Shown: piece by piece, positions 2,525 through 58,478 of the stretch | Layout of the letters: every line of letters starts with the position of its first letter | How positions within the stretch are numbered: the stretch's first letter is position 1 | DNA from: Planctomycetota bacterium | Lineage (GTDB): Bacteria; Planctomycetota; UBA1135; UBA2386 | Direction of reading: 5' to 3' | Assembly (NCBI GenBank): GCA_050245995.1 | Contig: JBFWWV010000001.1 | Coordinates: 175,437-239,436, forward strand | Length of the DNA: 64,000 bases | Notes under the pieces: generated by a model | Database searches by the model: none | What the model was told of the DNA's origin: nothing | Seen by the model: only the letters and a program-made list of their open reading frames with translations | Position numbers and translations under genes: made by a program

Positions 2525-3375
2525 TCAGCGCCCCTCGTCCACGCCGACGCGCAGGCGCTCCGCGTAGAGCGGCAGGCGGTCGATCAGCGCGAACGCCGCG
2601 GCTGGCTCGCGCTGCGCCGCCGCGGTCAGCGCCGCCCGCAGGCGGCGCAGCAGTTCGATCTCCGCGGCGGTCAGTTCGCGCTCGCGCAGCCAGCTGTCGA
2701 GGTTGGCCAGCACGCGCTGCCACGCCGCGCCGGCGTCGGCGGGCCACGGCGCCGGGCGCCAGCTGGCGAACGTGATCGCGCGCTCGGCGGCGGCGTCGTC
2801 GCGGCGACCGTCGAGCTCGAGCTGGACGATCTGGTTGGCGCGGATGCGGTCGAGCACCCGCGCCGGGTCGTTGCTCCACGGCAGGTAGCGCGTGCGCGTC
2901 CGGCGCGCACGGGCGCGCCCGGGGTCGGCCTCCTCCGCCGCCGTCTGCGCGGCCGCCAGCACCAGCGGGCGCAGCGGCGGCAGGTGGGTGGCCTGCAGGA
3001 ACGCGCGCAGCGGCGCCCGCGCGCCGGCCGCCAGCTCCAGTTCGCGCTCGAGCACCGGGTCGGCGGCGGCAGTCGGCGACGGCGCGAAGTGCGCGCGCAG
3101 CCCCTCGGGCACGAACCCCAGCTCCGGCGGCGGCGGCGCGTCCACGCCGAGCCGCCGCAGCTCGACGAGCCGGGCGCCGGCGACCATGCGCTCCACCGTC
3201 GGGGCCGCGGCGTCGTCCGCCACGCGCGCGTAGCCGCGCGCCGCGCCCTTCAGGTCGAGGTCGAGGACCTCGCGCAACCAGGCGCGGTGCAGCGAGGGCG
3301 CGTGGTCCTGCGCGGCGGCGCCGGCCGCCATGGCCAGCACCAGGACGAGGCGGGCCGCGTGCGTCGTGGCGTCGA

Positions 3376-19915: not shown

Positions 19916-21709
19916 TCAGTTGCCGAGGACGGCGTCGATCGCGTTCATGATGACGGTCTGGCCGCCACCGACGTTGTCGAAGCGCACCGCCTGCAGGAAC
20001 AGCGGGACGCCCTGGTAGAACGGCAGCGGCGGCACCGCCAGGTTGTAGGTGCCCGGGCCCGAGAAGGTGATCGCCCCGGTCGGGTCGATCAGCACCTCGC
20101 CGCCGAGGAACGGCACCGGGCCGAACGGCGCGACACCGACGACCATCAGGGTCAGCACGGTGTTGACGTTGGGCGAGGTGGTCAGCTGCCAGTTGCCGCC
20201 GACGACCGGCGCCGTGGTGCACTCGAAGCCGAGGGTGTTGATGCCGTTGCCGTTGCGGATCACGCAGCTGGCGGCACCCGGCGTGACGCGGAACACGCCC
20301 TGGTCGGTCGCGGCGCCGGCGCCGTTGCGCAGCGTCGCGGTGAACAGCACGTCGCCGTTCTCGAGCAGCAGCACGTCGTCGTTGCCGAACGTGTTGAGGA
20401 AGCGGTCCTCGTCGTACTGGCCGTTGCCGTCGACGTCGACCGGCGTGCCTTCGCGCACGACGACCTGGCGGTTGCCGAAGCCGTCGTCGAGGACGATCAC
20501 GCCGTCGCGGGTGTCGTCGACGTGGTCGGTGACGCCGGCGATCAAGAACGCGCCGCTCGAGTTGCCGTCCATGGCGAAGAAGCAGTCGCCGAAGCCGGTG
20601 TCGTCCCAGTGCTCACCGGAGCCGGTGACGATCTCGTTCAGGCCGTTGGAGAACGCCACGACGACGCCGTTGCGCACGACCCAGTCCTGCTCGGTGACGT
20701 CGTTGTTGCCGCGGGCGTACCAGTTGCCGCCGGCGTCCAGCCACGACTTGACGATGCCGGTCAGGTCGATCGGCTCGACGAACGGGCCGCCGGGGATCAC
20801 CTGGTTCTCCTGCAGGACCACCACGTTGTTGATGGTGACGACGTTGTCGTCGGTGGTGGCGGCGATGGTGTCACCCTGGATCAGCCAGGTGAGCCCGTCG
20901 CCCGACACGAACATGTCCTCGACGCCGAAGTTCTCCCAGGTGGCGGTCGCGCCGCCGGCCTGCAGCAGCGGGAAGTCGATGCCCTCCTGCAGGAACGCGC
21001 CGTTCGGCAGCATCACCACCTCGTCGGTGGTGGTGGTGAACGGGAGGCCGTCGAGCAGGTCCGAGCGCCAGGTGGCGACGCCGCCGTTGGTCAGGCGGCA
21101 GGTGTCCATGCCGTCATCCCAGGTGCCGCCCGCCAGCGCGGGGATCACCGGGTCGATCAGGCCGCCCTCCTGCGCCAGGGCGGTCCAGGTGCCCAGCGCG
21201 TTGTTGTAGAGCACCACGTAGTCGTCGGCGGTGGTGGCGGCGGTGCCGTTGGTGTTGTTGCCGATCAGCAGGTCGCCGGCGTTGTTCAGGCCGTACTCGT
21301 CGTCGATCGTGCCCCAGATCTCACCGACGGGCGCGAACGGCGCCGGGGCGCCTTCCTGGACCAGCAGCGCGCCGTCGAGCAGCAGCACGTTGTCGTCGGC
21401 GGTCGACGCCGAGTTGGTCTCGCACTCGAGCGCGAAGTGCAGGCCGTCCGGCGACACGATCGGGCGCACGAAGTTGGTGGTGCCGCTGCCCGGGTTGAAC
21501 GGGATGCCGAGGCCGGGGACGAGGTTGGTCGGCGCGCCGGGGAAGTTGACGTAGACGACGTTGATGTTGCCGCCGGGGATCACGCGCAGCTGCGCGCCCG
21601 TCATCTTCGGCGGGTCGCACCCGTCCTGGGCGAGGGCTGAGGGAGCGAGCGCGAAGAGCGCCAGCATGGCGGAGCGCGCAGGGCCGCGCGAAGCATTGCG
21701 AATGGACAT
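19916..21709 (-). CDS. Secreted repeat protein, paralog B
   Basis: ORF 19916..21709. Signal peptide MSIRNASRGPARSAMLALFALAPSALAQ, then QDGCDPPK (A has QDECTPPK). Colinear with paralog A throughout. The C-terminal ~125 aa are nearly identical. Confidence 0.75.
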   Translation of the reverse strand: MSIRNASRGPARSAMLALFALAPSALAQDGCDPPKMTGAQLRVIPGGNINVVYVNFPGAPTNLVPGLGIPFNPGSGTTNFVRPIVSPDGLHFALECETNSASTADDNVLLLDGALLVQEGAPAPFAPVGEIWGTIDDEYGLNNAGDLLIGNNTNGTAATTADDYVVLYNNALGTWTALAQEGGLIDPVIPALAGGTWDDGMDTCRLTNGGVATWRSDLLDGLPFTTTTDEVVMLPNGAFLQEGIDFPLLQAGGATATWENFGVEDMFVSGDGLTWLIQGDTIAATTDDNVVTINNVVVLQENQVIPGGPFVEPIDLTGIVKSWLDAGGNWYARGNNDVTEQDWVVRNGVVVAFSNGLNEIVTGSGEHWDDTGFGDCFFAMDGNSSGAFLIAGVTDHVDDTRDGVIVLDDGFGNRQVVVREGTPVDVDGNGQYDEDRFLNTFGNDDVLLLENGDVLFTATLRNGAGAATDQGVFRVTPGAASCVIRNGNGINTLGFECTTAPVVGGNWQLTTSPNVNTVLTLMVVGVAPFGPVPFLGGEVLIDPTGAITFSGPGTYNLAVPPLPFYQGVPLFLQAVRFDNVGGGQTVIMNAIDAVLGN

Positions 21710-32253: not shown

Positions 32254-32331
32254 CCGTTCGACTGCACCGTTCGACTGCACCGCTCGACTGCACAGCCCTA
32301 CTGCACTGCCCTACTGCACTGCCCTACTGGG
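32254..32331. repeat. 13-bp tandem repeat array, ~6 units in two subfamilies
   Basis: cgttcgactgcac x2, cgctcgactgcac, agccctactgcac, tgccctactgcac, tgccctactgggg. Lies in the 112-bp gap between the M28 stop and the PLP-enzyme start. Confidence 0.85.
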
Positions 32332-33537: not shown

Positions 33538-33738
33538 CCGGCCCTAGCCCTTGGCCCAAGCCCAAGCCCTAGCCTTTGCCTTTGCCCGAGCCTTTGCCTT
33601 TGCCCTGGCTGTGCGGTCGGCATCACTTCGCGGATGCTCTCTGCTTGGGGCGTGAGGGACGCATTCGCGACTCCAGCCAGCCGGCAATGCTCGGAGACCT
33701 GCGAGGGCCAGGGCCAGGGCTAGGGCAAAGGCAAGGCC
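33538..33738. repeat. Degenerate hexamer microsatellite (~12 units) with an inverted partner tract ~95 nt downstream
   Basis: 33538-33610: gccctagcccttggcccaagcccaagccctagcctttgcctttgcccgagcctttgcctttgccctgg. 33704-33738: agggccagggccagggctagggcaaaggcaaggcc, which is its reverse complement in kind. Intergenic. Confidence 0.8.
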
Positions 33739-35551: not shown

Positions 35552-36313
35552 ATGTTCCGCTCCCGTAAGGACAAACAGGCTGCCTCCGCGCGCGAGCTGC
35601 GCGACGACATGGTCGTGATCGTCGATCGCGCCGTGAACCCGTACCTGGTGCTGTTCCACGAGCCGGCGTCGTACCGCGCCGAACAGGTGCGGGCGCTGCG
35701 CAACCGTCTGGTGGCGCTCAATCCCGACGGCGAGCCCAAGACCCTGGTGGTGACCTCGGCGGGCCGCAGCGAGGGCAAGACCGTCACCGCCCTCAACCTG
35801 GCGATGGCGCTCGCCGAGCTCGAGCGCCAGCAGGTGCTGATCGTCGACGCCGACCTGCGGCGCCCGTCGGTCGAGCACTACCTGAACATCAACCCGGCGG
35901 CTGGCCTCAGCGACCTGCTGCTCGGCAACACGTCGCTGGACAAGGCCCTGCGGCCGGTCGGCTTCCGCCGGCTGATGCTGCTCGGCGCCGGCACGCGCGT
36001 CGGCAACCCGGCCGAGGTGCTCGGGACGTCGCGGCTCGACGAGCTGTTCGCGCGGCTCAAGGAGCGCTTCCAGTACATCGTCATCGACACGCCGCCGGTG
36101 CTGCCGTCGACCGACGCCGGGGTGCTCGCGGCGCGGGCCGACGGGACGCTGTTCGTCCTGCGGCTCGAGCACACTCTCAAGGGGCGCGCGCGCGACGCGA
36201 TCCGCACGCTGCAGGACCTCGGCGCCAACGTGCTCGGCACGTTCGTCAGCGAGCTGCGCGGCGCCGATCCGGACACCGACCCCGAACTGCGCTACGGCAG
36301 CCTGGAGGAATGA
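35552..36313 (+). CDS. BY-kinase-type (CpsD/CapB/Wzc C-terminal domain) P-loop ATPase, lacking a C-terminal tyrosine cluster
   Basis: HEPASYRAEQVRALRNRL, Walker A VTSAGRSEGKT, Walker A' VLIVDADLRRP, Walker B YIVIDTPPV. The C-terminal tail ELRGADPDTDPELRYGSLEE has a single Tyr. No TM segment, and no Wzz-like partner nearby. Confidence 0.75.
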   Translation: MFRSRKDKQAASARELRDDMVVIVDRAVNPYLVLFHEPASYRAEQVRALRNRLVALNPDGEPKTLVVTSAGRSEGKTVTALNLAMALAELERQQVLIVDADLRRPSVEHYLNINPAAGLSDLLLGNTSLDKALRPVGFRRLMLLGAGTRVGNPAEVLGTSRLDELFARLKERFQYIVIDTPPVLPSTDAGVLAARADGTLFVLRLEHTLKGRARDAIRTLQDLGANVLGTFVSELRGADPDTDPELRYGSLEE

Positions 36314-37104
36314 CCGTCGTGGCGGGGTTCAGGGAGGCGCTGAAGCAGGCGGTGCGGCAGATCGCGTTCCGCACCGACCTCGACTCCCTGAAGCGTCAGG
36401 GCGTCGAGCAGGTCAGCGTGCTCGGCATCGACCGTATCGTCGCGTTGGTCGAGGAGGCGGTGCACCGGAGCCTCAAGAGCCGGCTGGTCGGCATCGAGCG
36501 CGAGGCCGTCGCCGACGCCACCAAGTCCGAGTTCCTGCGCCTGCTGCGCACCAACCAGGACCTGCAGCGCGAGAAGTCGGAGCTCGAGCGCCTGAAGGAG
36601 CGCGCCGAGGACGAGGTCGACCAGCTGCGCCGCGAGCTCGGCGCCGAGAAGCAGGCGCTGGAGCAGCGGCTGCAGTGGAACAGCCTGGCCGACACCTCGC
36701 GCTACGAGGGCGAGAACGCCGCGATCGCCGTCAAGGTGCGCGACATGATCGGCCACATGTTCGACGACGGCGCCGACGCCACCGTGCTGCGCGACCGCGT
36801 GCTGGCGCTGGTGATCGACACCGTCGACAAGGAGCGCCGCTCGGCCGACCAGGCGCGCCGCGCGCTGCGCGACCGCGAGGTCGAGAACCTGCAGCGGCGC
36901 ATCGAGAAGCTGACGCAGTCGCTCGACACCACCGAGCACCGCCTGCGGCAGGTCGCGGCGATGAAGAACATCGACGACGGGATCTCGTCGATCTACCGCG
37001 AGGTCCAGGGCCTCAGCGCCGAGGCCGCCGACTTCGGCAAGAAGAAGGAACTGATGTCCGCCATCTTCCAGGCCAACATGCGCCTGCAGAAGCGGGCGAA
37101 GTGA
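36310..37104 (+). CDS. Cytoplasmic coiled-coil protein, unknown function
   Basis: ATGA overlap with the upstream ATPase gene. Long heptad-like charged stretches (LRTNQDLQREKSELERLKERAEDEVDQLRRELGAEKQALEQRLQ; RALRDREVENLQRRIEKLTQSLDTTEHRLRQ). No TM or signal peptide. Confidence 0.6.
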   Translation: MTVVAGFREALKQAVRQIAFRTDLDSLKRQGVEQVSVLGIDRIVALVEEAVHRSLKSRLVGIEREAVADATKSEFLRLLRTNQDLQREKSELERLKERAEDEVDQLRRELGAEKQALEQRLQWNSLADTSRYEGENAAIAVKVRDMIGHMFDDGADATVLRDRVLALVIDTVDKERRSADQARRALRDREVENLQRRIEKLTQSLDTTEHRLRQVAAMKNIDDGISSIYREVQGLSAEAADFGKKKELMSAIFQANMRLQKRAK

Positions 37105-37132
37105 GCTACCGACAGACCCAGGAAGGATTGAG

Positions 37133-38230
37133 ATGACCGACGAGACGACCATGACTCCGCCGCAGCCGACCACGGAACCCGCCGCGCCCAAGAAGGAACA
37201 CGGCGTGCTCTACATCGGCATGGACCTCGGCACCTCCCGCACGTCGGTGTCCGCCAGCAACGGCGTGCGCGAGTCCGTGTACTCGGTGGTGGGCTACCCG
37301 AAGGACGTCGTCAGCCGCAAGCTGCTGAAGAAGGACGTCCTGTTCGGCAAGGAGGCCATCGAGAAGCGCCTGTCGCTGAAGATGTTCAAGCCGCTCGAGA
37401 AGGGCGTGCTGAAGTACACCGGCGACGGCTCGATGACCGACGAGGCCAAGCAGAACCTCAAGGCCGCCAAGGACCTGATCGGCGAGGCCATCCGTCTGGC
37501 GCGGCCGCGCAAGGACGAGCTGGTCTACTGCGTCATCGGCGCGCCGGCCGAGGCCTCGATCAAGAACAAGGAGGCCATCATCGAGGCCGCGCGCGAGCAC
37601 GTCGACTCGGTGATGCTGTGCAGCGAGCCGTTCTCGGTCGCCTACGGCCTCGACTGGCTCGAGGACGTGCTGGTCATCGACATCGGCGCCGGCACCACGG
37701 ACCTCTGCCGAATGCACGGCACGATGCCGGAGGAGACCGACCAGGAGATGTTCGACATCGCCGGCGACGCCGTCGACGCCGAGCTGGCGCGCCTGATCCG
37801 CGAGACCTGCCCCGGGGCGCAGTTCTCCGAGCTGATGATCAAGGAGATCAAGGAGCGCCACTCGTTCGTCGGCGACACCGCCGAGCGCGTGAAGGTCGAG
37901 CTGCCCGTCGACGGCAAGCCGACGCAGTTCGACATCACCGACCAGATCCAGAAGGCCTGCTCGATCCTGATCGACCCGATCGTGCAGGGCATCCGCACGC
38001 TGATCGGCACCTTCGACCCCGAGTTCCAGGCCAGGCTGAAGAACCGCGTGCTGCTCGCCGGCGGCGGCTCGCTGGTCAAGGGGCTCGACGGCGCGGTCGA
38101 GAAGGCCATGCGCGAGCAGCTCGGCGGCGGCCGCGTGATCCGCATCGAGGAGCCGATCTACGGCGGCGCCAACGGCGCGCTGAAGATCGCCCACGACATG
38201 CCCGAGGAGTTCTGGGAGAAGCTCAAGTAG
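37133..38230 (+). CDS. MamK-family bacterial actin (MreB/ParM superfamily ATPase)
   Basis: RBS AGGAAGGA before the ATG. Phosphate-1 IGMDLGTSRT, SVVGYPKDV, CSEPFSVAYGLD, phosphate-2 VIDIGAGTTDLC, HSFVG, adenosine LLAGGGS, C-terminal GGANGALKIAHDMPEEFWEKL. These blocks line up with MamK as I remember it (SVVGYPKDV, VSEPFMVGYGLD, IVDIGAGTTDIC, FSFVG, FAGGGS, ...PPQYWRQL). Confidence 0.85.
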   Translation: MTDETTMTPPQPTTEPAAPKKEHGVLYIGMDLGTSRTSVSASNGVRESVYSVVGYPKDVVSRKLLKKDVLFGKEAIEKRLSLKMFKPLEKGVLKYTGDGSMTDEAKQNLKAAKDLIGEAIRLARPRKDELVYCVIGAPAEASIKNKEAIIEAAREHVDSVMLCSEPFSVAYGLDWLEDVLVIDIGAGTTDLCRMHGTMPEETDQEMFDIAGDAVDAELARLIRETCPGAQFSELMIKEIKERHSFVGDTAERVKVELPVDGKPTQFDITDQIQKACSILIDPIVQGIRTLIGTFDPEFQARLKNRVLLAGGGSLVKGLDGAVEKAMREQLGGGRVIRIEEPIYGGANGALKIAHDMPEEFWEKLK

Positions 38231-38236
38231 GAGCAT

Positions 38237-38640
38237 GCTGCGGTGCAAGTGAGGGCGCCGAAGGCGCCCTCACGCACCGCGCGCACGGACGCGGTCCGCG
38301 CGCCAGAGCCGATCGGACGTCAGGGCGCGGGGACACAACACCCGGATCGGGCGCATCCGCGGGACTCGGAACGCAGCTGCTTCGGGGCCGCAGCGGCCGG
38401 TCCGGCTGGCACGAGGCGCGCCGCGTCAGCACATCCGCAATAGCTGGAGCAGCGGACGCGTCACGCCGCGTGCGGGCCGGCCCTTGGCCGCTGCTGCGGC
38501 CCCGACGCTCGGGCGGGGTCGCGCTCTTGCTGCCCGCGAGAGCGGGGGCAGCAAAGCTGAATACCAGGAAGTCGGGACGCGAGAGCTGACGCTTACAGCC
38601 CAGCTAGCGGCTCCGGCTCGGCGCGTAGCCTCGCGCGCCG
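38237..38640 (+). repeat. Left arm of a ~400-bp imperfect inverted repeat
   Basis: Hand alignment to the reverse complement of 39125-39514. Long shared blocks include gacgcggtccgcgcgc, gcagcggc-ggtccggctggcac, and gcgtgcgggccggccc-tggccgctgct...ctgcccgcgaga-gggggcagcaaagctgaa...cgcgagagctgacg. Begins 7 nt after the stop at 38230. Confidence 0.8.
38249..38273 (+). terminator. Perfect 11-bp hairpin 19 nt after the actin-gene stop (inside the left inverted repeat)
   Basis: gtgagggcgcc-gaa-ggcgccctcac. No T-run. Confidence 0.45.
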
Positions 38641-38718
38641 CGGCATCTGCGCGGAACCTCGGTGGGAGCCTGCGAGCGGGCAATCGCATCGTCGCCGGCG
38701 CAGGGAGCGGTCTCGTTG

Positions 38719-39132
38719 ATGGTGAGGATCGCAGTGGAGGAGGCGTTGCGGGTGCTGGCGCGCGCCGAGGTCGACGCGTTGGCGGAGCTGTGCGGGTCCC
38801 GCGACGCAGCGGCGCGGCACCTGACGATGTTCGTGCTGGGGCACGCGCGGGATGCCGGCGCGGTCCCGGCGCTGCTGCGCGTGCTCGTGCACCAGCAGGA
38901 CGACTTCGATCACGACTGGTTCGATCACGATTGGGCGTTCGAGGCGATCGCGCAGCTCGGACCGGTCGCGCTCGAACCGCTGGCGCGCGTGGCGCTCGAG
39001 GGCGGCGACACCGAGGCTGAGCACGCCACGCAGGCCCTCGGCCAGTGCCACGGCCCTGGGGTCTGGCCGCAGCTCGAACGCATCCACCGTCAACGTCGAC
39101 CGCTGCCCCGCGGCTTCTACGCCGCCTGCTAG
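38719..39132 (+). CDS. Small HEAT/PBS-lyase-type repeat protein
   Basis: In frame within ORF 38662..39132; ATG 38719 preferred (MVRIAVEEALRVL). AARHLTMFVLGHARDAGAVPALLRVL and AFEAIAQLGPVALEPLARVALEGG are HEAT-like. Contains a duplicated FDHDW. Confidence 0.45.
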   Translation: MVRIAVEEALRVLARAEVDALAELCGSRDAAARHLTMFVLGHARDAGAVPALLRVLVHQQDDFDHDWFDHDWAFEAIAQLGPVALEPLARVALEGGDTEAEHATQALGQCHGPGVWPQLERIHRQRRPLPRGFYAAC

Positions 39133-39514
39133 CGCGCAGCGCCCGAGCCGAAGCCGCGAGCTCAGCGGCTCCGTCAGCTCTCGCGAGACGGTTTCTCCGG
39201 TTGTTCAGCTTTGCTGCCCCCGTCTCGCGGGCAGTAAGGCGCGACCGCGCGCGGGGTCGGGACCGGAGCAGCGGCCAGGGGCCGGCCCGCACGCGCCGCG
39301 ACGCGGCTTCGGTGTCGGCTCGCGGCGGTGTTGTCGCGGCGCGGCGGGTGCCAGCCGGACCTGCCGCTGCGCTAGCCGGAGCGGCTGCTCTCCATCGGAG
39401 CAGTGCCCTCGGCTGGGCGGTGGCGTTCCTGCCGCGGATGTTGCCCCTTCTGCGCGCGGACCGCGTCCGCGCGTCGCTGTGCGCGAGGGTGCTCTGCACC
39501 CGAGCTTGCACAGC
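39125..39514 (-). repeat. Right arm of the inverted repeat
   Basis: Reverse complement aligns with 38237-38640. Ends 3 nt from the HAD-gene stop at 39517. Confidence 0.8.
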
Positions 39515-39516
39515 AA

Positions 39517-40239
39517 TCACCGGATCGCGAAGTGCCCCTGCAGGATCGTCTGCAGCTCGAAGAAGTCGCGCACTTCCCAGTTCGGCTGGGTCTTGCCGGT
39601 CTCGGTCGAGTGGCGGCCGCTGCGGCGGATGCGGACGGTGAACCAGCCCTCCTGGTTGCACGGGTCGATGTCGTGCGTGGGATTGTCGCCGACGTACAGG
39701 CAGCGGCTGGGCTCGAGCTGCATGCGCTGCAGCACGCGGCGGTAGAGCTTCGGGTTGGGCTTGCTGAAGCCGATCTGGTCGGTGAAGAACACCGCCGAGG
39801 GCGTCATGAACTCGACCAGCTTGAGGCGCACCAGCTTCTCGGCCTGCTTGATGGTGATGCCGGCGGACACGATGCCGCGGATCAGCCGGGTGCTGGCCAG
39901 CCACTTGAGCACCTCGTAGACGTCGTCGTGGACCTGCAGCTCGCGCCACTTGGTCTCGTGGTAGGCGACGACGCCGGCAGCGACGATGACGGCGCGGTTG
40001 ACGCCCTGGCTGGCCTCGGGCGGCAGGCGATCGACGACCTTGTCGAAGTGGTTGCCGTAGTTGCTGCTGAACTCGGTCAGCACCTCGTCGAGCTCGCGCA
40101 GCGCGTCGTTGCGATCGGCGCGCAGGCCGGCGCGGATCATCGCGTCGATGGCGGCGCGGCGCGCCTTGTCGGCGAACACGGTGGTGGAGAACAGCGTGTC
40201 GTCGATGTCGAAGAAGATCGCGTCGAGGGGCGTGCTCAC
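39517..40239 (-). CDS. HAD-superfamily hydrolase, subfamily IA
   Basis: Motif I FFDIDDTLF, motif II VSAG, motif III KPNPK, motif IV YVGDNPTHDI. Confidence 0.85.
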   Translation of the reverse strand: MSTPLDAIFFDIDDTLFSTTVFADKARRAAIDAMIRAGLRADRNDALRELDEVLTEFSSNYGNHFDKVVDRLPPEASQGVNRAVIVAAGVVAYHETKWRELQVHDDVYEVLKWLASTRLIRGIVSAGITIKQAEKLVRLKLVEFMTPSAVFFTDQIGFSKPNPKLYRRVLQRMQLEPSRCLYVGDNPTHDIDPCNQEGWFTVRIRRSGRHSTETGKTQPNWEVRDFFELQTILQGHFAIR

Positions 40240-53235: not shown

Positions 53236-53295
53236 CAGTCGATGGCCCAGTCTGGGGCCCAGTCGGGGATTCAGTCGGGGATTCAATCGGGGCCT
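53236..53295. repeat. 12-bp tandem repeat, 5 units, abutting the UDG stop codon
   Basis: cagtcgatggcc cagtctggggcc cagtcggggatt cagtcggggatt caatcggggcct. Confidence 0.85.
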
Positions 53296-55481: not shown

Positions 55482-58478
55482 ATGTCGGGCCGCACTGGCC
55501 CGGCCGCGATCGCGCCGGGCGACCCCTCGGTGACGATCTCTTCTGCTCCTCCTGCCGCGCGGCCCTGCCCAGCCGACCTGCCGCTCGACCCGTCCGCGCT
55601 GCGGGCGCGGTCGTGGTGGTTCGGCCTGCCCGGGTGCCTGCTGTTGGCGCTGCTGGCGTGGCTGCCGACGGCGCTGCGGGCCGAGTTCCTGAACTTCGAC
55701 GACCCGTTCTTCTTCGGGCCGGACAACCCGCTGTTCCGCGCCGCCGCGGAGCGGGCGCAGGAGCACGGGGTGCTGGCCGGGCTGGCTACGGTGCTCGATC
55801 CGCGGCAGCTGGTCGCCGACGTCTACCTGCCGGTCGCGCACGGCTCGCTGTGGCTCGACTACTGGTGGTTCGCGCCGGACCCGCGCGGGCCGCACGTGAT
55901 GGCGGTGCTGCTGCACGCGCTGGCCGGCTTCGCGCTGCTGCGCTGGCTCACGGCGATGCGGCTGCCGGCGGCGCTGGCCGCGACGGCGACCGCGGTGTTC
56001 CTGGTGCACCCGGCGCTCGGCGAGTCGGTCGCCTGGGTCAGCAGCCGCAAGGACGTGCTGAGCGGCCTGTTCGTGTTCGCCGGCATGGCGCTGGTCGCGC
56101 GCGCCGGGCGCGGCGCAGGCCTCGGGCTGCTGGTGGCGCTCGCCGCGTGCGGCGTGCTGGCGATGTACTCGAAGGCCACCGCCGTCGTGCAGCCGCTGCT
56201 GGCGGTGCTGGTGTGCCTCTACACCGGCGGCGCGCGCAGCCGGTGGCTGGCGCCGCTGGTGCTGCTGCTGGTGACCGCGCCGATCGCGTGGCATCACCAG
56301 CTCAACGCCGCGACCGCGGGCACGATGGTGGCCGGCGGCGCGGCCGAGCGGCTGACGCAGGTGCCGGGCGCGTTCGCGCACTACCTGGCGACGGCGCTGT
56401 GGCCGCGCGGGCTCAACGTGCTCTACCCCGAGGTCGCGACGCTCGAACGGTTCCGCGATGCGCTGTGGTGGACCGCGCCGCTCGTGCTGGTCGTCGTGGC
56501 GCTCGGAATCTGGAGCTGGACGCGGCCGCGGCTGCGCGCGGTGGGCTTAGGCGCCATCGGCTTCCTGCTGGCGCTGCTGCCGTTCAACACCGCGTGGCCG
56601 GCGTCGGTGATCGCGGTCGCCGATCGCTACCTGTACCTCGCGGTGCCGTTCGCGGCGGTCGCGGTGCTGGCCTCGCTGCGGCCGCTGCTGCGGCGGCCGG
56701 CGCTGGTCGGCGTCGCGCTCACCGTGCCGCTGCTGCTGGCGACGTGGTCGCGCGCGCCCGCATTCGCGAGCAGCGGCGAGCTGTGGGAACGGAGCCTCGC
56801 CGCCGACGCCGACAACGCCGTCGCGCTGCTGAACCTGATCCAGGCGCGTTCGCCGTTCGCCGTCGACGTCGCGTGGGCGCGGCCGCTGGCCGAGCGCGCC
56901 GCCGAGGCCGCGCGCTACCCCGAGCACGCGCGAAGGGCGCACCTGCTGCTCGCGCAGTACGCGCTCGCCGAGCACCGCTACCAGGAGGCCGCGCAGCAGA
57001 CCGACGCGGCGCTGGCGGCCACCGAGCGCATCGGCGAGTCGGGCCGCGTGCTGCCGGCGGTCGTCGACGCGCTGCGCGCCCGCACGCTGGTGCTGGCGAT
57101 CACGCCGTACCGGCTGGCCGGCCGGCTCGACGACGCGCGCCGCGCGCTGCAGCGCGCCGAGCAGGTGGCGCCCGACGATCCCGGCGTCGTCGCCGCGGCG
57201 GTGCTGCTCGAGGTCGAGGCGTTGGCGGCGGAGCTCGCGGCGCCTTCCGCACCGGCACCCGATGGCGCGGCCCCATCGACGGCCCCATCGACCAAGCCGC
57301 GGCTCGCCGACGACGACCCACGCGTGCGCACCGTGGCCGAACGCATCCAGCGCGCGCGCGCGACGACGCCGGACGCGCCCGAGGTCGAGTGCGCCGCCGG
57401 CACGTTCGCGCGGCTGCGCGGTCGGCAGCTCGAGGCGATCGCCTGCTTCCGCCGCGCGCTCGCCAAGAACCCGGGCATGGTCGACGCGTGGCTCGGCGCC
57501 GCCGAGGTCTGCCTCGACAACGGGCTGTGCGCGGAGGCCGAGGACTACGCGCGGTCGGGCATCGCCACCAGCCGCCAGCTCGGCCAGCCGGTCGACCCGC
57601 GCCTTCGCCTCGCGCTGGTGCGCGGCCTGCAGGGGCTCGGCCGCATCGACGAGGCGATCGAGTCGCTGCGCGTCTACGTCGAGCAGCGGCCGCGCGACCG
57701 CGACGCGGCGCGGCTCTACTCGGGTCTCCTGATGCACAAGGCGCGGCAGCGGCTCGCCGACCCCGAGGTCACGCACGCCGAGCTGGAGCGGCTGGTCGAG
57801 CGCGCGCTGGCGGCCAATCCGCAGGAGCCGGCGGTCGACCTGGTGCGCGCGCGCATGCTGCGCGACCGGCGCGAGTTCGCGGCCGCGGTCGAGGCGCTCG
57901 ATCGGCTGGCTCTGGCGCTGCCCGACTTCGAGGACACCCGCGCGATGCTGGCCGAGAACCTGCGCGACCTCGGCTACGAACGGCTGTTCGCCGGCGACGA
58001 CGACGGCGCGGCCGCAGCCTGGGTGCGGTTCGTCGGGCTGGCGCCGCGGCAGGTCGACACCGAGGCGGTGCGCATGCAGCTGAAGGCGATCTGGCGCCGC
58101 GCCGAGGAGCGCGGCATCGCCGCGCGGCAGGCGGGCGACGAGGTCGCGGCGCAGCGCGCGTTCCGGCAGTGCCTGCAGATCGACCCGGACCACCACTGGG
58201 CGGCGTGGCTGCTGCTGACCGGGTTGCTCGACGACCCGGCGGCGGATCCGGTCGAGCTGCAGGACCTCAGCGACAAGGCGCTGCGCTGGCAGCAGCAGCA
58301 CGGCCTCGACCGCAGCCGGCAAGTGGCCGCGCGCGCCATGGTGCTGCGCCGCGTCGGGCGCGGCGAGGAGGCGCTTGCGCTGGTCGACGGCTACCTCGAA
58401 GGGCCCGACGCCGAGGCGCCGCCGCCGGTGCTGTCGATGCTGCGCCAGCTGCGCGGCGACCTGGCGGAAGGCCGCTGA
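55482..58478 (+). CDS. TMTC-like membrane protein: polytopic N-terminal glycosyltransferase-C-like/DUF1736-type domain + C-terminal TPR array
   Basis: In frame within ORF 53184..58478; ATG 55482. About 10 TM helices after FLNFDDPFFFGPDNPLF. HPALGESVAWVSSRKDVLSGLF. C-terminal TPR-like repeats (AIACFRRALAKNPGMVDAWLGAAEVCL, etc.). Confidence 0.7.
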   Translation: MSGRTGPAAIAPGDPSVTISSAPPAARPCPADLPLDPSALRARSWWFGLPGCLLLALLAWLPTALRAEFLNFDDPFFFGPDNPLFRAAAERAQEHGVLAGLATVLDPRQLVADVYLPVAHGSLWLDYWWFAPDPRGPHVMAVLLHALAGFALLRWLTAMRLPAALAATATAVFLVHPALGESVAWVSSRKDVLSGLFVFAGMALVARAGRGAGLGLLVALAACGVLAMYSKATAVVQPLLAVLVCLYTGGARSRWLAPLVLLLVTAPIAWHHQLNAATAGTMVAGGAAERLTQVPGAFAHYLATALWPRGLNVLYPEVATLERFRDALWWTAPLVLVVVALGIWSWTRPRLRAVGLGAIGFLLALLPFNTAWPASVIAVADRYLYLAVPFAAVAVLASLRPLLRRPALVGVALTVPLLLATWSRAPAFASSGELWERSLAADADNAVALLNLIQARSPFAVDVAWARPLAERAAEAARYPEHARRAHLLLAQYALAEHRYQEAAQQTDAALAATERIGESGRVLPAVVDALRARTLVLAITPYRLAGRLDDARRALQRAEQVAPDDPGVVAAAVLLEVEALAAELAAPSAPAPDGAAPSTAPSTKPRLADDDPRVRTVAERIQRARATTPDAPEVECAAGTFARLRGRQLEAIACFRRALAKNPGMVDAWLGAAEVCLDNGLCAEAEDYARSGIATSRQLGQPVDPRLRLALVRGLQGLGRIDEAIESLRVYVEQRPRDRDAARLYSGLLMHKARQRLADPEVTHAELERLVERALAANPQEPAVDLVRARMLRDRREFAAAVEALDRLALALPDFEDTRAMLAENLRDLGYERLFAGDDDGAAAAWVRFVGLAPRQVDTEAVRMQLKAIWRRAEERGIAARQAGDEVAAQRAFRQCLQIDPDHHWAAWLLLTGLLDDPAADPVELQDLSDKALRWQQQHGLDRSRQVAARAMVLRRVGRGEEALALVDGYLEGPDAEAPPPVLSMLRQLRGDLAEGR

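Follow-up and report, generated by a model that had tools for sequence, protein, structure and literature searches.

A truncated HEAT-repeat gene bracketed by long, diverged inverted repeats: a lineage-specific insertion between convergent actin-like and HAD genes in a Planctomycetota bacterium

In the genome of a Planctomycetota bacterium (assembly GCA_050245995.1), a gene for a MamK-family actin-like protein and a gene for a HAD-family hydrolase converge, and the space between their stop codons is taken up by a 1286-bp unit in which two long inverted repeats, the arms, bracket a core with a small HEAT-repeat gene. Where did this unit come from, and what might its arms be doing there? We addressed the question in a window of 64,000 nucleotides, the whole stretch of DNA that was analysed (contig JBFWWV010000001.1, positions 175,437 to 239,436 of the forward strand; coordinates below are those of the window), with a GC content of 72.9%. 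An initial annotation had left four options: two copies of a genome-wide repeat, a foldback element or one resembling a MITE (miniature inverted-repeat transposable element) with a passenger gene, an invertible segment, or a giant RNA stem. We find that the whole 1286-bp unit is one lineage-specific insertion. Our leading reading, put forward tentatively, is that the unit may be a cassette acquired once, already bracketed by its inverted repeats, which has since become fixed and decayed and whose outer hairpins would now act as terminators. The parts of the unit and its flanks are as follows.

37133 to 38230, plus strand: left flanking gene, MamK-family actin-like protein of 365 aa (Pfam MreB_Mbl, Actin, Salactin); outside the insertion
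38239 to 38624, plus strand: left arm, a non-coding module rich in hairpins that aligns to the right arm
38625 to 39138, no strand: unique core between the arms, 514 bp by the alignment end points
39139 to 39515, minus strand: right arm of the inverted repeat, which on the minus strand has its modules in the same order as the left arm
39517 to 40239, minus strand: right flanking gene, HAD-family hydrolase of 240 aa (Pfam Hydrolase, HAD_2); outside the insertion

The status of the unit as an insertion follows from its neighbours. The actin-like protein, named 'MamK family actin-like protein' at NCBI, is strongly conserved in a Planctomycetota clade, and the HAD gene is syntenic in all relatives compared. 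These were six loci (L003, L004, L005, L006, L052, L053) with an actin-like protein 84-90% identical to that of the window (the relative at 90% is GCA_965191875.1), and all six keep the same gene order of a ParA/MipZ-like gene, a gene for a ~260-aa protein, the actin-like gene and the convergent HAD gene, with secretin and ExbD/ExbB genes beyond HAD where the contig reaches that far. From the actin-like stop to the HAD stop the relatives have 216, 65, 24 and 50 bp, as against 1286 bp in the window; a HEAT gene between the two stops is absent from all six loci, and blastn of L003 to L006 found no similarity to the unit. In the comparison with the syntenic locus, which the initial annotation had proposed as a check, the site is empty at all six loci, with spacers of 24-216 bp. 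The coding ends of the actin-like and HAD genes are unchanged relative to the relatives, in which every one of the spacers folds up as hairpins. Since the syntenic spacers are short and lack the insert, the 1286 bp has replaced a short terminator-like spacer, as one insertion in place of a single-hairpin spacer between the convergent mamK-like and HAD genes.

The arms themselves are unmistakably related. Smith-Waterman alignment of 38239-38624 on the plus strand with the reverse complement of 39139-39515 matches 298 of 399 columns (74.7%) at a score of 250, compared with 25.7±3.2 and a maximum of 40 among 200 shuffles; blastn of one arm against the other gives E=1e-49, and a repeat search of the region returned the colinear blocks I1-I4 and I6 between the arms. 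The inverted repeat described in the initial annotation is thus borne out, including the sequence blocks that it had quoted, and the alternative that it had named, low-complexity GC similarity without colinear blocks, is not what the computed alignment shows. Its measurements need some adjustment. The outer ends do lie close to both stops, but with spacings other than the 7 and 3 nt given: 8 nt (38231-38238) lie between the TAG of the actin-like gene (38228-38230) and the left arm, and a single nt (39516) between the right arm and the HAD stop (39517-39519). Similarly, the single open reading frame (ORF) at 38719-39132 is present in the interior as described, but the core measures 514 bp instead of ~480 bp.

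Within the arms we distinguish the following elements.

38240 to 38280, plus strand: H1, the left arm's outer hairpin, which begins 10 nt past the actin-like stop; probable terminator or 3'-end hairpin
38281 to 38303, plus strand: H2, second hairpin, GCGCACGGACGCGGTCCGCGCGC, ~87% conserved between the arms
38305 to 38379, plus strand: mosaic break, a left-arm segment of ~75 nt essentially without homology to the right arm by sliding identity
38379 to 38508, plus strand: H3, an imperfect palindrome of ~130 nt in the left arm
38530 to 38551, plus strand: H4, hairpin CTGCCCGCGAGAGCGGGGGCAG, with the conserved CAAAGCTGAA after it
39474 to 39516, minus strand: H1', outer hairpin of the right arm, directly past the HAD stop; like H1, probably a terminator or a hairpin of the 3' end

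Read from the outside to the inside, the order in an arm is H1, H2, the non-homologous stretch of ~75 nt, H3, H4 with CAAAGCTGAA, and a tail of ~70 nt. That each arm starts with a hairpin of its own, as had been noted, is confirmed at 38240-38280 and 39474-39516. H3 was recovered by blastn of the arm against its own reverse complement, as alifold pairs at columns 171-255 and as a self-hit of the covariance model on the opposite strand, and its stems are the best-conserved blocks of the arm. A feature that goes beyond the initial annotation is the mosaic identity of the arms. Identity is 57-67% in the extreme 30 nt, ~75% over the outer 65 nt and highest, at 80-93%, over 38380-38560, and it is 43-57% in 30-column windows of the segment 38305-38379, whose local alignment to the other arm is not above shuffles. 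The matches are clustered into blocks beyond chance (P≈0.001), the blocks coincide with hairpins H2, H3 and H4, and the longest exact run shared by the arms is 19 nt. The arms differ by at least 13 indel events, mostly of 1-2 nt, and by substitutions without bias (45 transitions, 46 transversions). We take the arms to be non-coding because they have no third-position periodicity and because their indels are mostly of 1-2 nt. No codon periodicity or third-position GC signal was found in them; GC at third codon positions (GC3) is 0.98-1.0 in the neighbouring genes and about 0.9 in the central ORF. A coding nature of the arms was rejected on the lack of GC periodicity, on indels that are not multiples of three and on the lack of translated similarity to the rest of the HEAT family. 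Also rejected was a mutation bias like that of diversity-generating retroelements, the transitions and transversions being even and an adenine-specific pattern being absent.

The left junction is reproduced, up to 38496, by two Logan assemblies, SRR27751815 and SRR27751816, and the contig of the metagenome-assembled genome (MAG) is the sole source of the right junction; queries for exact copies of the HEAT and HAD proteins, which could have given an independent right junction, returned nothing on record. Could the unit then be an artefact of assembly, or a chimeric join made in the MAG? What this explanation has to go on is that no independent assembly was found to carry the core and the right junction. 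Against it, two independent Logan assemblies agree exactly on the left junction, palindromes made by an assembler are perfect and not a 75%-identical mosaic, and the ORF has real remote homologues, so that we regard an artefact as highly improbable. The two Logan contigs (L001, L002), whose 5' ends differ by 3 nt, both stop at exactly 38496, in the best-conserved block of the left arm. This shared end suggests that the assembly graph branches here reproducibly, owing to a further copy, a variant or an isomer in orientation, and that it is not a random drop in coverage; the locus is prone to breaking short-read assemblies.

An orientation isomer would be expected of an invertible, phase-variable segment, in which the HEAT core is turned around by recombination of one arm with the other. 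Inverted repeats do flank a small gene here, as they surround a short segment in invertons, and the common end of the Logan contigs could reflect such a branch. Known invertons have short, near-perfect repeats, unlike the diverged repeats of 385 nt seen here, and the segment enclosed in our case is a gene fragment and not a promoter. The 75% identity and the longest exact run of 19 nt do not suffice for homologous recombination to be efficient, the arms would have been homogenised had exchange been frequent, and there is no invertase or other site-specific recombinase in the unit or in its conserved neighbourhood (ParA-like, actin-like, HAD, secretin and ExbBD genes). The third option of the initial annotation is on these grounds very hard to sustain, and we give it next to no weight.

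The core has its own story to tell, which is carried by two further features.

38719 to 39132, plus strand: ORF of 137 aa, a stand-alone N-terminal HEAT-repeat domain and truncated derivative of a family of ~400-430 aa
38905 to 38934, plus strand: in-frame tandem duplication of 15 nt in the ORF (FDHDW twice), from Tandem Repeats Finder and protein alignment

The 'small HEAT-repeat gene' of the initial annotation has HEAT homology as stated, but by the alignments it is the N-terminal third of a rare family of ~420 aa, broken at the inner edge of the right arm. The ORF is identical to the NCBI protein AB7O97_00800, 'MAG: hypothetical protein [Planctomycetota bacterium]'. An exhaustive phmmer search with it gave 207 matches, the best of them at E=1e-19 to 1e-12 and 41-47% identity (top match P0122, residues 43-162, E=1.2e-19), and these best matches span the entire ORF but only residues ~40-165 of proteins of 400-430 aa. 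The full-length homologues are HEAT_2/PBS-lyase-like and pass the Pfam gathering threshold; the ORF itself scores 20.0 bits with HEAT_2 (PF13646), below the gathering cutoff of 27.7, and it resembles HEAT_2/PBS-lyase proteins both in this homology and in a predicted alpha-solenoid fold. Where the full-length proteins run on through ...FFMACYNLRDPR... for ~260 residues, the ORF ends in ...RRPLPRGFYAAC and a stop (GFYAAC, stop), 7 nt before the inner edge of the right arm. By tblastn the HEAT-family homology is confined to 38662-39168, with a possible beginning at the GTG at 38662, and nothing of what the ORF lacks of the family was found in translations of the arms.

The frame of the ORF is intact, and in the protein alignment the invariant residues of the family are kept. 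The duplication at 38905-38934 consists of two copies of TTCGATCACGACTGG with one mismatch, doubles the conserved FDHD motif of the family, and is private to the ORF, being present in no family member. The AlphaFold2 model is an all-helical compact solenoid, with a predicted local distance difference test (pLDDT) score of 94.3 and a predicted template-modelling (pTM) score of 0.88, in which the duplication is the sole block of lower pLDDT (residues 61-70); the nearest PDB matches are alphaRep and HEAT-like repeat proteins at a template-modelling score of ~0.5, a generic likeness. With its intact frame, the kept residues and this model, the ORF still looks usable, and it probably yields a small helical-repeat protein. 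Its codon use (GC3 0.89, codon adaptation index 0.54), which lies beyond the range of 20 window genes (0.94-0.99 and 0.69-0.88, respectively), looks like that of a gene of foreign origin or under relaxed selection. That the ORF stayed open while the arms took at least 13 indels suggests either that the ORF is under selection or that the arms were never identical. For annotation, the ORF is better described as a truncated paralogue than as a normal HEAT gene.

The truncation brings in the closest rival to our reading, a one-off rearrangement that never involved transposition. Here a piece of ectopic DNA, made up of the 5' third of a HEAT gene and ~390 bp upstream of it, would have been captured at a break between the convergent genes, the upstream part being copied in inverted orientation by snap-back or template switching, and the arms would have diverged in place afterwards. 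Such inverted duplications are a proposed route to tandem inversion duplications in bacteria; they are usually copies of adjacent local DNA, and unstable. The unit is like them in having an inverted repeat around a unique spacer, no recombinase and no target-site duplication, in being single-copy wherever it was searched for, and in that the junction may fall anywhere within a gene: the cut in the HEAT gene coincides exactly with the right arm's inner edge, as would be expected of a template-switch joint. The lack of preferential conservation at the termini speaks for it as well. On the other hand, arms and core are without counterpart at the relatives' loci and the structure is old, with a divergence of 25% that is at odds with the intact frame of the ORF; the mosaic arms with their non-homologous 75-nt segment would need further, later events; and the inner junctions, read from the sequence, show no clear microhomology. 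Nor was a donor locus or a full-length paralogue found in the same genome: a single-sequence, word-indexed search for a full-length HEAT paralogue from the source MAG returned only the ORF itself, a profile search returned 6 proteins of which only the ORF is from the source MAG, and arm-like DNA is absent around the full-length family members (L049, L050, L051) in the short contexts available. We see the one-off rearrangement as somewhat unlikely, though a serious competitor.

We now turn to what the arms may be doing at present. H1 and H1' are stable GC-rich hairpins directly past the stops: the first 60 nt fold at -41.9 kcal/mol on the actin-like side and at -31.8 kcal/mol on the HAD side, relative to a background of -24.6±5.8. 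With the second hairpins included, 38231-38305 (75 nt; H1 and H2) folds at -53.6 kcal/mol, and 39441-39516 on the minus strand (76 nt; H1' and H2') at -43.7 kcal/mol. H1 differs from its right-arm copy by three compensatory pair changes. The two hairpins look like terminators because they are strong and close to the stops, because they have been kept through these three changes, and because they resemble other gene ends. We hypothesize from these features that H1 and H1' now serve as terminators in place of the ancestral spacer hairpin. Elsewhere in the window, the genes ending at 19916, 43770, 50260, 58626+ and 40589 are followed by perfect GC-rich hairpins that have no U-tract, at -33 to -44 kcal/mol per 60 nt, which suggests that 3' ends in this genome are signalled by U-less hairpins that standard terminator scans overlook. 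Gene-end GC-rich hairpins, bidirectional intrinsic terminators and palindromes similar to REP (repetitive extragenic palindromic) sequences provide the known background (PMC3733652). H1 and H1' are similar to these in lying directly past convergent stops and in resembling both gene ends of the window and the relatives' spacers, and differ in being embedded in a far longer repeat, in not being multi-copy and in having no U-tract.

If hairpins are kept at the gene ends, are the arms as a whole maintained for a function? They could be two selected copies of a functional element, either a structured RNA in the 3' untranslated region of both genes or a protein-binding DNA module, and the inverted layout would then simply follow from the convergent orientation of the genes. 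Consistent with this, both arms are oriented alike relative to their upstream gene, both fold better than shuffles (z=-6.1 for 38231-38640 and z=-4.2 for 39125-39520), and the identity is clustered on H2, H3 and H4. The consensus fold of the arms has 9 compensatory pairs among 102, three of them in H1, and the compensatory excess has a permutation P of 0.003 to 0.33 by arm and strand, exceeding permutations in 2 of the 4 tests, figures that come from two sequences only and have almost no power. Yet the changed pairs in the minimum-free-energy fold of one arm's sense strand are broken in the other arm in 36 of 49 and 35 of 49 cases; the sense signal is no stronger than the antisense one, as for DNA palindromes; templated quasi-palindrome correction and patchy gene conversion give the same pattern without an RNA function; and no homologous element is present in the relatives' 3' regions. 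A known RNA family was also rejected for the arms, as Rfam 15 has no match at gathering score in the whole window and only noise of E>6 in 38000-39800. The pattern fits locally kept DNA or RNA hairpins and not a globally conserved RNA, with the little power that two sequences give, and selection on whole arms strikes us as doubtful.

A different role for the arms was the fourth option of the initial annotation, in which they pair with each other as a giant stem that isolates or regulates the HEAT gene and terminates both convergent transcripts. A read-through transcript would fold into an imperfect duplex of ~390 bp and so sequester or destabilise the HEAT mRNA, for example via RNase III. When the whole 1286 nt are folded as one strand, 262 of 503 pairs are indeed formed between the arms, and the arms co-folded reach -624 kcal/mol, compared with -479 kcal/mol when folded separately. 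Any inverted repeat gives such thermodynamics, however, and the strong local hairpins past the stops should either terminate transcription or fold first in its course. For the termination of both convergent transcripts, the outer hairpins with their local folds are a simpler explanation than a giant stem, for which we see little likelihood.

Copies of the arms elsewhere would have been the most direct sign of mobility. Our copy searches covered the relatives' loci, GTDB, JGI, IMG/VR, PLSDB and INPHARED and, of the source genome, the 64-kb window. In the window, neither blastn nor a covariance model of H3-H4 found a second copy of an arm; one extra blastn match, at 56680-56720, was set aside as compositional, lying within a coding region. 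The H3-H4 model run against the window and nine loci recovered only the two arms. A match to L005 at 2924-3090 on the minus strand (19 bits, rough E≈0.01) extends across two coding gene ends and was treated as noise; it is the only non-self match with E<0.1, and it sits over the junction of two convergent genes. The best-conserved 18-mer of the arms occurs 17 times in 185,579 GTDB species genomes and 25 times in the JGI metagenomes, while IMG/VR has no match to it. These occurrences are chance-level, with ~17 expected in the genome collection for a random 18-mer by our own estimate; none extends past the seed, and in no Planctomycetota case are there two sites. Sensitive blastn of the arms against plasmids (PLSDB) and phages (INPHARED) gave no match. 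The option of a genome-wide repeat, which the initial annotation had listed first, consequently finds no support in the window, the relatives or the public collections searched.

Of the four options, the foldback or MITE-like element with a passenger gene comes closest. Terminal inverted repeats are present at both ends, if at only 57-67% identity in the extreme 30 nt, the insertion is absent in relatives, and, as the initial annotation had stated, neither the unit, which holds the HEAT ORF only, nor the conserved neighbourhood contains a recombinase or transposase. Several observations weigh against a mobile origin and against the terminator role that goes with it in our reading. Neither the collections just listed nor the 64-kb window to which the search of the source genome extended yielded a further copy of the arms. 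There is no target-site duplication: when boundary pairs were scanned systematically, direct repeats did not exceed 4 nt and none fitted the repeat ends, although decay is possible. The extreme termini (57-67%) are less conserved than the inner blocks (80-93%), which is the opposite of what would be expected of transposase-bound ends, and one segment of the arm (38305-38379) is non-homologous between the arms. We know of no transposase with matching ends. Finally, a U-tract after H1 and H1' is absent by a consensus terminator scan, which requires one.

Comparison with known mobile elements leads to a similarly divided picture. The repeats of mobile insertion cassettes (MICs) and MITEs are typically tens of bp. 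The unit shares with MIC/MITE elements its terminal inverted repeats, its small passenger ORF, the lack of a transposase, the intergenic position and the site that is empty in relatives; it departs from them in its arms, which are ~385 bp, only 75% identical and mosaic, with termini less conserved than the interior, in having no target-site duplication and no second copy or cognate insertion sequence (IS) that could be found, and in a passenger that is a gene fragment. Foldback elements and capture of the Pack-MITE type are eukaryotic and known as multi-copy families with defined termini and target-site duplications, features not seen in the unit, which is like them in its long inverted arms with internal sub-repeats and hairpins and in its short unique core carrying a fragment of a cellular gene. 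In bacteria, the terms MIC and MITE-like non-autonomous element, used in PMC5444012, PMC4337579, PMC6542083 and the review PMC3184786, stand for IS-type terminal inverted repeats that flank passenger genes, no transposase being present. We do not file the unit as a member of the MIC or foldback elements: the layout is alike, and the defining features failed or lack support. The unit matches nothing known and shows no sign of moving, of flipping or of being a conserved RNA.

On balance, the reading to which we give the most credence, still with reserve, is that of a cassette acquired once. This cassette would consist of a truncated but open HEAT gene between two inverted, diverged and mosaic copies of a hairpin-rich non-coding module of ~385 nt, and its acquisition would have been akin to that of a foldback element or of a mobile insertion cassette without transposase, past mobility being what we infer. 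Fixation and decay would have followed, leaving a 'fossil' cassette. As terminator or 3' end, the outermost hairpin of each arm would have taken the place of the ancestral hairpin that was lost, and both convergent genes and the small HEAT gene could thereby be insulated from one another.

A bolder and decidedly improbable version is that the unit represents, as the first one sampled, an undescribed kind of recombinase-less cassette of Planctomycetota with long hairpin-rich inverted terminal arms. Such a cassette would insert at the terminator hairpin between convergent genes, carry a stand-alone HEAT-domain gene and give its neighbours homologous structured 3' ends. If its arms were functional, as RNA or DNA, instead of decaying, this would explain both the block-wise conservation and the intact ORF. 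Were a cassette family of this kind to exist, it would offer a route by which small genes are added between convergent genes of Planctomycetota without disturbing them, the arms bringing the terminators along, and it would be a bacterial counterpart to the eukaryotic foldback and gene-fragment-capturing elements. Were the unit instead a one-off, it would be an example of an inverted duplication that creates a small domain-only protein from a larger gene, and of the replacement of a terminator hairpin.

Two further observations concern the surroundings of the unit. At 35552-38230, and likewise in L003, L005 and L052, the genes for a ParA/MipZ-like ATPase, a ~260-aa protein without Pfam domains and the MamK-family actin-like protein form a syntenic trio. 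This cluster adjoins HAD, secretin and ExbB/ExbD genes across many Planctomycetota MAGs, its actin-like protein is 75-90% identical across the clade, and it could represent a module for the cytoskeleton or for partition that occurs outside the magnetotactic bacteria. The window also holds tandem arrays with units of 12-18 nt, at 32254-32329, 53260-53292, 1523-1588 and 33566-33605. Those at 32254-32329, 33566-33605 and 53260-53292 start within ~55 nt of a gene end, and the array of CCGTTCGACTGCA at 32254 and that of CAGTCGGGGATT at 53260, whose reverse complement is AATCCCCGACTG, have a CGACTG core in common.

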